Shown in pieces: positions 4,925 through 52,459 of a stretch of DNA of 64,000 nucleotides. Origin of the DNA: Escherichia coli (GTDB lineage Bacteria > Pseudomonadota > Gammaproteobacteria > Enterobacterales > Enterobacteriaceae); the NCBI RefSeq assembly GCF_003334785.1, contig NZ_QOWV01000007.1. One strand, written 5' to 3'. The notes under the pieces were generated by a model, which had not been told where the DNA came from, did no database searches, and worked only from the letters and a program-made list of their open reading frames with translations. A program made the position numbers and the translations under genes. Position 1 is the first letter of the stretch. The number at the start of each line of letters is the position of its first letter.

Positions 4925-5084
4925 GGGTTATTCCTTATCTATCTAATAACGTTGAGTTTTCTGGAACCTGTCCCATTGAACTCTCGCCGGAAAGCTCAAT
5001 AAGACAGGTTCTACGTTTAGTTGCCGCGCTTTTATATGCGCTTGATTTACAACATCTTCTGGATAATTTTTACCAGAAAAATCA

Positions 5085-43573: not shown

Positions 43574-44231
43574 ACTTAACTCCACTGTCACACTTAACTC
43601 CCTTTCCCTTATTGGAATGCAGAGAAATAATCCTGAAGAATATGATTTATCATGCATATAAAATAAGAAAAAGCAAAATGAGTAAAATTCGGAAAACATA
43701 AAGATACGGGTTCTGATAAAAACAGAATCCATTGCCGTGGAATGAGTCATTTACCACAGCATAATAATCCATAATGTTTTTGTTGCGAAAACAATCTAAT
43801 CATAACTACCGCGAATACTCAATCATCTACAAAATGGATTAAATGTGCTTATTTAATAATTAATTTATATATTTAATGCATTAATTCTTAACATTAATTG
43901 ATCAATAATATTCACCAAATCAATATCAAAAAAATCGCAAAAGATATAATTCAATACAAATCATCAGGATAGGTTTTGCAACGCGTGCATTTTGTCCCCT
44001 TTTTCCTCGTTGATTAGATGCAAAAATTTATGCTGAAATATGTCAACCGATGAAAAGCGTCGGTAGTTAAGCAGAAATTAATATCGCTTACTTTAACCAC
44101 CGCAGCACAATTAGCTAATTTTACGGATGCAGAACTCACGCTGGCGGGACGTTTTTATTGCGTCAGGGTTGACATCCGTTTTTGTATCCAGTAACTCTAA
44201 AAGCATATCGCATTCATCTGGAGCTGATTTA

Positions 44232-44318
44232 ATGACTCACATCGTTCGCTTTATCGGTCTACTACTACTAAACGCATCTTCTTTGCGCGGTAGACGAGTG
44301 AGCGGCATCCAGCATTAA
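44232..44318 (+). CDS. leuL: leu operon leader peptide
   Basis: 28 codons [28 protein letters not shown] with four consecutive CTA Leu codons at 44259-44270; sits inside a longer track ORF. Confidence 0.9.
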
Positions 44319-44339
44319 GCCAGCACGCAGTCAAACAAA

Positions 44340-44368
44340 AAACCCGCGCCATTGCGCGGGTTTTTTTA
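44340..44368 (+). terminator. leu attenuator (rho-independent terminator)
   Basis: AACCCGCGCC-ATTG-GCGCGGGTTTTTTT read directly between leuL and leuA. Confidence 0.9.
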
Positions 44369-47075: not shown

Positions 47076-49092
<2,017 letters not shown>

Positions 49093-49140: not shown

Positions 49141-50319
49141 TCAAACGTCTTTAACCTTTGCGGTTAAAAATAATGCGACAACAGAAATAACCGCAATTAC
49201 CCAGTAGACAGCAAAGTGCCCCCAACTTTGTGCAATTGCTCCCTGAATAACGCCAGCCAGAATTACCCCGGTAGAAATACTGTTAGTAAATAAGGTGGTA
49301 GCTGCCCCCGCTCTTCCAGGCATTAAATCCTGAAACCATAGCATCCCAATACCCGCAACAATGCCGATAAATACAGCGTTAAAAAGTTGCAGCGTCATCA
49401 ACGCCATACGGCTATTAAAGAAAATCAATCCGGTGTAAAACAGTACTCCTGCCGCCACTGCTATGACCATCATTCGCCGCTTACCATAACGTTTGACATA
49501 GTAGCCAGCCAGAATCATTGCTGGTATTTCCAGTCCAGCTGCCGTCCCCATCAGGAAACCCGCCAGTTTGTCTGGCAATCCTAACTCGCTACTGATCCAC
49601 AACGGCATATCAATAATGTACATGGTGTTGCAGGTCCACATTAACGTCGAGGCGACAAATAACATCCGTACGTTACTATCCTGCCAGCCACCTTGCATTG
49701 ATAAAGCATTTTCCGACGGCAGTTCTACCCGCGCCACAGACGGAAGCATAAATGCAATCAATACCAGACTGAGTGTGAATATCCCGGCGGCAATCGAAAA
49801 CATCACCGTAAAGCCGTAATTCAACGCCAGCATAAAGGCCAACGGTGGACCGATAACCCATGCCAGAGAAAGCTGCGCACGCATCACCGAGCTAAACATC
49901 ACCACTTCTCGCGCCGAGTTATCCGCATATTCCCGCGCCAGAGCAAATAACTGTGGCATTGCCGTATTGGCCAGAGATGCCAGAAGCACACCACAGGTGA
50001 TAAGCGTCAGATAATGACGATTAAATGCAAACAATAGCGCATTGCCGATAGCCATCAAACAGCAAAATATAATCAGTTTTCGCCGATCGCCCTGACTGTC
50101 AGAACGTTTTGCCAACCAGAGGCTTACGCCGATCCCAGCAATAGCATTCACCGTATAAAAGAGGCCGATCCAGAAAGGTTGCGCGCCAACCTCACGACTC
50201 AGAAATAAGCTCAATGTAGGAGCCTGTAGCGCCCCGGCCACCCCCATCATAAAAGCGACCAGCATAAATGCCGCGTAAACACCGTTCATACGGCGAGCCA
50301 TCGTCATTATCCAGATCAT
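49141..50319 (-). CDS. setA: MFS sugar efflux transporter
   Basis: 392 aa MIWIMTMARRMNGVYAAFMLVAFMMGVAGALQAPTLSLFLSREV...; 12-TM MFS topology. Confidence 0.95.
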   Translation of the reverse strand: MIWIMTMARRMNGVYAAFMLVAFMMGVAGALQAPTLSLFLSREVGAQPFWIGLFYTVNAIAGIGVSLWLAKRSDSQGDRRKLIIFCCLMAIGNALLFAFNRHYLTLITCGVLLASLANTAMPQLFALAREYADNSAREVVMFSSVMRAQLSLAWVIGPPLAFMLALNYGFTVMFSIAAGIFTLSLVLIAFMLPSVARVELPSENALSMQGGWQDSNVRMLFVASTLMWTCNTMYIIDMPLWISSELGLPDKLAGFLMGTAAGLEIPAMILAGYYVKRYGKRRMMVIAVAAGVLFYTGLIFFNSRMALMTLQLFNAVFIGIVAGIGMLWFQDLMPGRAGAATTLFTNSISTGVILAGVIQGAIAQSWGHFAVYWVIAVISVVALFLTAKVKDV

Positions 50320-50346
50320 ACGTTCCCTTTTTAGCGCGGCGAGAAT

Positions 50347-50573
50347 AAAAAAAACCAGCAGGTATAATCTGCTGGCGGGTGATTTTACACCAATACTCAG
50401 TCACACATGATGCAGGCAAGTCAACTTTCAGAATTGCGGTCATCCCACTGCATCAGTCCTTCAAGCATGGTTAATCGTTGTGGGACGCTTAACCAACGCA
50501 ACCAGCACAACTTCGCTGTCGCGGTAAAATAGTGCTGGTAAAACTGACGCATGGGGCACCCCCTTGCTTCATC
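50347..50573 (-). ncRNA. sgrS: SgrS small RNA (glucose-phosphate stress; dual-function sRNA/mRNA)
   Basis: Minus strand reads GATGAAGCAAGGGGGTGCCCCATGCGTCAG...AGTATTGGTGTAAAATCACCCGCCAGCAGATTATACCTGCTGGTTTTTTTT, matching the SgrS sequence as I recall it, including the seed region and 3' terminator; divergent from sgrR. Confidence 0.9.
50421..50552 (-). CDS. sgrT: SgrT, 43-aa peptide encoded within SgrS
   Basis: MRQFYQHYFTATAKLCWLRWLSVPQRLTMLEGLMQWDDRNSES is the C-terminal part of a 99-aa track ORF; the ATG at 50550-50552 lies inside the sgrS 5' region. Confidence 0.85.
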   Translation of the reverse strand: MRQFYQHYFTATAKLCWLRWLSVPQRLTMLEGLMQWDDRNSES

Positions 50574-50640
50574 GTTAGGAATTATTGACTTAATATAGGG
50601 AAAATAAAATTGCTGTCTTTTGCACAGGAGTTCCCCTTTT

Positions 50641-52296
50641 ATGCCATCTGCTCGTCTGCAACAACAGTTCATCCGCCTGTGGCAATGCTGCGAGGGTAAA
50701 TCGCAGGACACAACGCTCAACGAACTGGCAGCGTTATTGAGCTGCTCGCGTCGTCATATGCGCACCCTGCTCAACACCATGCAGGATCGCGGCTGGCTGA
50801 CGTGGGAAGCGGAAGTCGGGCGCGGTAAACGCTCGCGTCTGACATTCCTCTATACCGGGCTGGCGCTTCAGCAACAGCGGGCGGAAGACCTGCTAGAGCA
50901 GGATCGTATCGATCAACTGGTGCAGTTGGTTGGCGACAAAGCGACTGTGCGGCAAATGCTGGTTTCTCATCTGGGCCGCAGCTTCCGCCAGGGGCGGCAC
51001 ATCCTGCGCGTGCTCTACTATCGTCCGTTGCGTAATCTGCTACCTGGCAGCGCATTGCGCCGTTCCGAAACCCATATCGCCCGGCAAATCTTCAGTTCGC
51101 TAACGCGCATAAATGAGGAAAATGGGGAACTGGAAGCAGACATCGCCCACCACTGGCAGCAAATTTCACCGCTTCACTGGCGTTTCTTTTTGCGTCCAGG
51201 AGTCCATTTTCACCATGGTCGTGAACTGGAAATGGACGATGTGATCGCCTCTTTAAAACGAATCAATACGCTGCCGCTCTATTCGCATATTGCTGACATT
51301 GTGTCGCCGACGCCCTGGACGCTGGATATCCATCTCACGCAACCGGACCGCTGGTTACCGTTACTGCTGGGGCAAGTTCCGGCGATGATCCTGCCGCGCG
51401 AATGGGAAACCCTCAGTAACTTTGCCAGCCATCCCATCGGCACCGGTCCGTATGCGGTGATTCGCAACAGCACCAATCAACTGAAAATTCAGGCATTCGA
51501 TGACTTCTTCGGTTACCGGGCATTAATCGACGAAGTTAACGTCTGGGTTCTGCCGGAAATTGCCGACGAGCCAGCCGGAGGGCTGATGCTAAAAGGTCCA
51601 CAGGGCGAGGAAAAAGAGATTGAAAGCCGCCTGGAGGAAGGTTGCTACTATTTACTGTTCGACAGCCGCACCCATCGCGGGGCGAATCAGCAAGTCAGGG
51701 ACTGGGTAAGCTATGTGCTTTCTCCAACTAATCTGGTCTATTTCGCTGAGGAACAGTACCAGCAACTGTGGTTCCCGGCTTATGGACTGCTCCCCCGTTG
51801 GCACCATGCCCGCACCATAAAGAGCGAAAAACCGGCTGGCCTGGAAAGCCTCACCCTAACCTTTTATCAGGATCACAGTGAGCATCGGGTGATTGCCGGG
51901 ATCATGCAGCAGATTCTGGCAAGTCACCAGGTCACGCTGAAAATCAAAGAGATCGACTACGATCAGTGGCATACAGGAGAGATCGAAAGTGATATCTGGC
52001 TAAACAGCGCCAACTTTACCCTGCCGCTGGACTTCTCTGTTTTCGCACATTTATGCGAAGTGCCACTGCTACAACATTGCATTCCCATTGACTGGCAAGC
52101 CGACGCTGCTCGCTGGCGCAATGGCGAGATGAATCTGGCGAACTGGTGCCAGCAACTGGTCGCCAGCAAAGCGATGGTGCCATTATTGCACCACTGGCTG
52201 ATCATTCAGGGGCAACGCAGTATGCGCGGCCTGCGCATGAATACCCTCGGCTGGTTCGATTTTAAATCAGCGTGGTTTGCGCCACCGGATCCATGA
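50641..52296 (+). CDS. sgrR: transcriptional regulator SgrR (HTH plus solute-binding-protein-like domain)
   Basis: Track ORF 558 aa; known N-terminus [33 protein letters not shown] begins at ATG 50641 (551 aa); the longer frame would run through the sgrS promoter. Confidence 0.93.
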
Positions 52297-52331
52297 TTGC
52301 TGGTTGATAACAAAATCACTACACTAACGCC

Positions 52332-52424
52332 GTTCTCAACGGGGTGCCACGCGTACGCGTGCGCTGAGAAAATACCCGTCGAACCTGATCCGGATAACGC
52401 CGGCGAAGGGATTTGAGGCTCCTT
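52332..52424 (+). promoter_or_regulatory. sroA: TPP riboswitch (thi box; sroA) in the thiBPQ leader
   Basis: GGGGTGCC...CTGAGA...AACCTGATCCGGATAACGCCGGCGAAGGGA read directly, carrying the conserved THI-element CTGAGA and ACCTGATC-GG-TAATGCC-GCG-AGGGA-like core; 35-130 bp upstream of thiB. Confidence 0.85.
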
Positions 52425-52459
52425 CTCAAGTCCTTTGCCACTCTTTTTTGAGGTGCAAA

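Follow-up and report, generated by a model that had tools for sequence, protein, structure and literature searches.

The 64,000-nucleotide stretch of E. coli DNA analyzed here, which will be referred to as the window, carries the gene for the small RNA SgrS, which stops the import of sugar under sugar-phosphate stress, with the sgrT reading frame embedded in it, located between sgrR and setA (Table 1). A first-pass annotation had proposed a minus-strand sgrS RNA at this place and had named a search with the SgrS family model as a check. This search yielded a match of the Rfam SgrS model RF00534 to 50347..50573 (-) with 227.1 bits (E 8.9e-64; gathering score 37), spanning model positions 1-232 of 232 and untruncated. 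The interval originally assigned to the locus, 50347-50640, was wider; the 227-nt RNA accounts for 50347..50573, and the remaining 67 nt represent the promoter and the spacer toward sgrR. Alignment of 341 nt (50320..50660, -), running from inside sgrR to the base preceding the setA start codon, with the corresponding region of E. coli K-12 MG1655 revealed a single difference, a T>C exchange in sgrT codon 5 (TAT>TAC, both Tyr), which is synonymous. Positions 50573 and 50347 of the window coincide in this alignment with the ends annotated for K-12 sgrS (b4577, 77367..77593), and sgrT aligns with K-12 b4662. In addition, 100% identity over 322 nt was found in E. coli FDAARGOS_1248. The identity as sgrS/sgrT, the divergence from sgrR and the flanking setA, all postulated by the first-pass annotation, are borne out by RF00534, by the Pfam family PF15894, by the K-12 alignment and by the neighbouring genes.

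We are thus practically certain that the locus is E. coli sgrS with embedded sgrT and that its minus-strand transcript, beginning at 50573 and finishing with the terminator at 50347, is controlled by the divergently encoded activator SgrR. No observation spoke against this identification. The window copy is the already known gene and holds no novelty; SgrS and SgrT have been characterised since 2004-2007. Family membership, anatomy, complementarity to ptsG and gene neighbourhood can all be read directly from the window. A textbook dual-function small RNA is hence recognisable from the raw sequence, at a place where the mechanically made ORF track shows a 99-aa ORF instead. What the analysis adds is modest and consists of population-level counts over 5426 complete E. 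coli genomes.

Table 1: Features of the sgrR-sgrS-setA region in the window (SgrS nt are counted from the 5′ end of the RNA).
Feature	Position	Strand	Remarks
sgrR, divergent activator of sgrS	50641..52296	+	551 aa; NCBIfam NF010149; RefSeq
sgrR-sgrS divergent control region	50574..50640	.	67 nt; sgrS promoter
sgrS small RNA	50347..50573	-	227 nt; 5′ end 50573, 3′ end 50347; RF00534; K-12 b4577
GGGGGTGCCCC inverted repeat	50553..50563	-	SgrS nt 11-21; over the sgrT Shine-Dalgarno region, directly before the AUG; K-12-type
sgrT ORF	50421..50552	-	SgrS nt 22-153; 43 codons + stop; Pfam PF15894
Base-pairing region	50386..50412	-	SgrS nt 162-188; predicted duplex of nt 167-188 with the ptsG ribosome-binding site
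Small hairpin GGUG-UAAAAU-CACC	50378..50391	-	SgrS nt 183-196; from the fold; precedes the terminator
Rho-independent terminator	50347..50376	-	SgrS nt 198-227; 8-bp stem, 7-nt loop, U8 tail
Spacer, sgrS 3′ end to setA start codon	50320..50346	-	27 nt; from the sequence
setA, sugar efflux transporter	49141..50319	-	TIGR00899; RefSeq setA
leuD	48487..49092	+	beyond setA

The genes surrounding sgrS were assigned with family models. SgrR matches the equivalog model NF010149 'HTH-type transcriptional regulator SgrR' with 1126.8 bits (cut-off 476; residues 1-550 of 551), and SetA matches the subfamily model TIGR00899 with 602.6 bits (cut-off 522.3). On the setA side, the locus is followed by leuD and leuC, and on the sgrR side by a TPP riboswitch and thiB, resulting in the gene order thiB-sgrR-sgrS-setA-leuD as in E. 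coli, though in reversed orientation compared to the K-12 map. sgrS is divergent from sgrR and lies between sgrR and leuD, which is the positional criterion used by Horler and Vanderpool (PMC2760817). The setA start codon has been described to follow the sgrS terminator at a distance of 27 bp (PMC9765468), and the same gap is present in the window.

In every E. coli allele sampled, 65-67/67 positions of the divergent control region are identical. Its conservation and its importance for sgrS activation have been reported (PMC2760817). Judged from its spacing to the annotated 5′ end of sgrS, the motif AATAAT at 50581..50586 (-), positions -13..-8 of sgrS, is a candidate -10 element. A weak -35 element is to be expected because the promoter is activator-dependent. 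The sole minus-strand match obtained in a consensus scan, AAGACA-16-TATATT ending at 50592, was rejected, as 19 nt separate it from the annotated 5′ end further downstream.

The RNA starts with GAUGAAGCAAGGGGGUGCCCCAUG and ends with GCCAGCAGAUUAUACCUGCUGGUUUUUUUU. Its full-length fold has a predicted energy of -81.8 kcal/mol, corresponding to a z-score of -3.95 versus dinucleotide shuffles. A terminator hairpin followed by a U8 tract had been claimed for the 3′ end, and both were recovered by a terminator scan and by folding: the scan detected an 8-bp stem (GCCAGCAG/CTGCTGGT) at 50376..50354 followed by a T run of exactly 8 residues (50354..50347), and the hairpin (SgrS nt 198-220) has a predicted energy of -12.7 kcal/mol. 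The length of the tail agrees with the polyU tail of 8 reported for SgrS, where Hfq binding requires polyU at the 3′ terminus (PMC4509938). The small hairpin predicted ahead of the terminator corresponds in position to a short hairpin mentioned in the same study (PMC4509938). In a diverged E. coli allele of approximately 90% identity, described below, the small hairpin is kept in position with other bases (UGGUG/CGCCA), and the terminator stem is likewise retained in the fold.

Conservation between this allele and the window is concentrated in the base-pairing region. Nucleotides 162-186 (CAUCAUGUGUGACUGAGUAUUGGUG) are identical at 25/25 positions, whereas the flanks have diverged, with 16/30 identical positions in nt 132-161, 5/11 in nt 187-197 and 23/30 in the terminator. 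The same nt 162-186 form the upper-case, most conserved columns of the RF00534 consensus. The string AGTATTGGTGTAAAATCACCCGCC, which had been proposed as the conserved 3′ seed, is present at SgrS nt 177-200 but placed too far toward the 3′ end. Since nt 162-186 are invariant and their flanks are not, only its first ten bases (nt 177-186) belong to the conserved core, which reaches 15 nt further in the 5′ direction. To the remainder of the string, the small hairpin contributes its variable loop and descending arm (AAAAUCACC), and the first bases of the terminator stem are GCC.

As the ptsG and manXYZ targets are located outside the window, their K-12 copies were used for predicting base pairing. 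A local search of SgrS nt 158-190 against 28-nt target windows, with 100 shuffled controls, yielded a duplex of -27.8 kcal/mol between SgrS nt 167-188 (UGUGUGACUGAGUAUUGGUGUA) and positions -29..-8 of ptsG, an energy that was reached by none of the 100 shuffled targets. The predicted duplex covers the AGGAG Shine-Dalgarno sequence of ptsG and includes G176 and G178 of SgrS, the mutation of which abolishes ptsG regulation (PMC2760806). RNAduplex predictions with full-length SgrS and long target windows yielded sprawling duplexes no better than those of the shuffles. For manX and manY, the duplexes predicted by the local search did not beat the shuffled controls (13/100 and 34/100, respectively). 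The published sites are nevertheless visible, in manX as a short complementarity of SgrS CAUGUGUG opposite CACACAUG early in the gene, and in the manX-manY spacer as AUCACUCAG..UUCACAC. Both rest on the literature on SgrS regulation of manX and the manX-manY sites (PMC4021124); the duplex energy alone does not support them.

The claim of a 43-codon SgrT reading frame embedded in the 5′ part of the RNA was confirmed. Translation of 50421..50552 (-) results in MRQFYQHYFTATAKLCWLRWLSVPQRLTMLEGLMQWDDRNSES*, and the product matches Pfam PF15894 'Inhibitor of glucose uptake transporter SgrT' over residues 3-37 (E 3.5e-13, 49.5 bits); among the NCBIfam models, no match to SgrT was obtained. The protein is identical to K-12 SgrT, and on 100% identical DNA RefSeq annotates a 132-nt CDS 'glucose uptake inhibitor SgrT'. 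In the window allele, the hairpin GGGGGUGCCCC covers the sgrT ribosome-binding site. Wadler and Vanderpool demonstrated that SgrT-3xFLAG is undetectable from the K-12 allele and that mutations opening the hairpin restore SgrT (PMC2760806). Horler and Vanderpool found this inverted-repeat feature in only 3/15 E. coli strains (PMC2760817). The exact 75-nt stretch carrying the K-12-type repeat was detected in 1421 of the 5400 genomes with sgrS (26%), the other 3979 differing by at least one base, and 9/9 non-identical alleles that were read carry a G13>A exchange, giving GGAGG.

The earlier description of the RNA as both riboregulator and mRNA holds insofar as sgrT is intact and pairing with ptsG is predicted, but the mRNA half is probably weak, given the K-12-type hairpin (PMC2760806). 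One may go further and regard the window RNA as effectively a pure base-pairing regulator, in which sgrT is intact but silent with its ribosome-binding site locked in the GGGGGUGCCCC hairpin and the long 5′ helix. The window contains the exact inverted repeat from which, in K-12, SgrT-3xFLAG was obtained only after mutation of the hairpin, and the first 40 nt fold with -12.4 kcal/mol for G13 versus -6.7 kcal/mol for the common A13 allele. Furthermore, approximately 90% pairing is predicted for the sgrT AUG in the full-length fold, where it falls within a long helix shared with the Rfam consensus structure; this pairing is found for both the G13 and the A13 allele. However, the predicted accessibility of the Shine-Dalgarno region in the full-length fold does not differ between the two alleles either (0.32). 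Besides, the reading frame is intact and encodes the functional K-12 protein, most of sgrT is nearly invariant across E. coli, and the authors of PMC2760806 allow for the structure being opened by some other condition or factor. A complete silence of sgrT is possible, though less likely than not. We favour a dual-function RNA in which base pairing probably dominates and the window allele probably yields little SgrT, as the ribosome-binding site of sgrT is covered by the hairpin.

Loss of sgrT was encountered elsewhere in E. coli. In O157:H7 FRIK2069, ATT replaces the sgrT ATG (window 50550..50552); a point mutation of the O157:H7 start codon was reported in 2009 as removing SgrT (PMC2760817). 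The RefSeq annotation of FRIK2069 lets the sgrT CDS begin at this ATT, under the same protein accession as in ATG strains. In E. coli HS-02, sgrT is a frameshifted pseudogene due to a 1-nt deletion (...TMLKN*), and the SgrS pairing core is intact.

At the population level, sgrS was detected in 5400 of the 5426 complete E. coli genomes, with one copy each, and the sequence search found no sgrS match in the other 26. setA is present in 3241 of the 5426 (~60%), leaving 2159 genomes (5400 - 3241) that carry sgrS and lack setA. Alleles of sgrS with at most 95% identity to the window were found in 2158 genomes (1820 + 338; ~40% of the complete genomes); they are approximately 90% identical and diverge from SgrS nt 132 onward. 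Two 3′ haplotypes of sgrS thus track the presence and absence of setA almost one for one, with about 2158 diverged alleles and 2159 setA-less genomes. In 3/3 setA-less genomes that were opened, leuD directly follows sgrS, as there is no setA downstream of this allele. Three of the sgrS and setA matches sit on plasmid-labelled records.

These sgrS haplotypes were described in 2009 from three genomes (PMC2760817), and the setA-less allele is probably the CFT073/O157:H7-type allele of Horler and Vanderpool, reported to be 88% identical to K-12 sgrS (PMC2760817). It shares with the window the promoter, the pairing core (nt 162-186) and the architecture of two hairpins at the 3′ end. The first 36 codons of its SgrT are the same except for G32E, whereas the C-terminus reads EGSHSDY compared to DDRNSES in the window. 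Further differences concern the spacer, the loop of the small hairpin and the Shine-Dalgarno sequence, which is GGAGG. The RNA ends with GCUGGCUUUUUUCUUUUUGG, that is, with a U6-C-U5 tail versus the uninterrupted U8 of the window. Given that a long polyU at the 3′ end is required for the binding of Hfq, the transcripts of the two alleles may end differently or be terminated with different efficiency. It might even be speculated that the two terminators are tuned differently, a leaky one feeding setA and a tight one, or that the G13 hairpin is a conditional switch for SgrT; we consider either unlikely.

Co-transcription of sgrS and setA, with setA being expressed via read-through of the sgrS terminator, is documented (PMC9765468, PMC4509938). 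The read-through products do not bind Hfq and serve setA instead. It might thus be argued that the stretch primarily serves as 5′ leader of the setA mRNA and the short RNA a by-product of termination, all the more as setA begins on the same strand 27 nt past the terminator and read-through reaches ~50% on plasmids in normal growth (PMC4509938, PMC9765468). However, stress makes termination more efficient, and Hfq binds SgrS only in its terminated form (PMC4509938). The visible constraint on the pairing core also speaks against a mere by-product, and the mutational work on ptsG regulation contradicts an inactive 227-nt species (PMC2760806). Since sgrS persists in some 2159 complete genomes without any setA, it is not a mere setA leader, and we regard this explanation as highly improbable. 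An even smaller chance has to be given to the 99-aa ORF (50421..50720, -), which opens with TTG and runs across the sgrR start at 50641, being a real coding gene. The open frame does exist, but the ORF list is made mechanically and the last 43 codons are sgrT itself. Its first 56 codons precede the 5′ end of SgrS (50573), occupying the promoter and sequence antisense to sgrR, and the curated K-12 annotation gives only the 43-codon sgrT. As RefSeq likewise annotates only the 132-nt sgrT CDS on identical DNA, the ORF is an artefact, as the first-pass annotation had suspected when calling it a mis-annotation if taken literally.

Due to the near-identity with K-12, the experimental literature on K-12 SgrS applies directly to the sgrS gene of the window. 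For the K-12 sequence, one base different from the window, it is established that glucose-phosphate stress induces sgrS through SgrR and that SgrS represses ptsG and manXYZ in an Hfq-dependent manner. From this literature, the window copy would be expected to be induced by stress, to depend on Hfq and to provide SgrT activity. In the published mechanism, sugar-phosphate stress renders SgrR active, which in turn switches on sgrS; the action of SgrS then leads to a block of translation and decay by RNase E, while the yigL mRNA is stabilised. The 5′ part of SgrS codes for the 43-aa SgrT, a direct inhibitor of the PtsG transporter, and transcripts passing the sgrS terminator represent setA mRNA.

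In comparison to sgrS/sgrT of K-12 MG1655, the window is the same with respect to the length of 227 nt, both ends, the promoter spacer, the SgrT protein, the pairing region, the hairpins including that formed by GGGGGTGCCCC, the U8 tail and the 27-nt spacer to setA, the synonymous exchange in sgrT codon 5 being the only difference. S. aureus RNAIII as well as E. coli Spot 42/SpfP and AzuCR likewise combine base pairing and a small ORF in one RNA. RNAIII, Spot 42/SpfP, AzuCR and B. subtilis SR1/SR1P are unrelated to SgrS in sequence, regulon and protein; they have the working principle in common and are not family members. For SR1/SR1P, base pairing and a small ORF on one transcript are covered in reviews (PMC12612679, PMC12310071). 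SgrS/SgrT of Salmonella Typhimurium belongs to the same Rfam family and has the same dual function, regulating ptsG of E. coli and coding for SgrT (PMC2760806). It differs in that the hairpin structure upstream of sgrT is absent and much more SgrT is produced (PMC2760806), and in that its terminator is located 22 nt past the pairing region compared to ~10 nt (PMC2760817, PMC2760806).

Several further RNA families were matched in the window. A match to Rfam PssrA ('Plasmid-encoded Shigella sRNA A') of 105.5 bits lies at 22628..22717 (-), at the chromosomal ftsA-ftsZ junction (ftsA end 22697, ftsZ start 22636), a location to which the family name does not fit. At 61111..61546 (+), an 85-bp unit built of REP-like palindromes is tandemly repeated in 5.1 copies with 98% identity. 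Four Rfam naRNA4 matches just over the threshold (60.2 versus 59.5 bits) lie inside this array, and two further naRNA4 matches are located at 16315..16508 (-). The Rfam matches at 44218..44367 (+), 52330..52429 (+), 4927..5040 (+) and 16912..16981 (-) comprise the leader of the leucine operon ahead of leuABCD, the TPP riboswitch preceding thiB (K-12 sroA), tp2 and STnc40, and fit a K-12-like chromosome segment.
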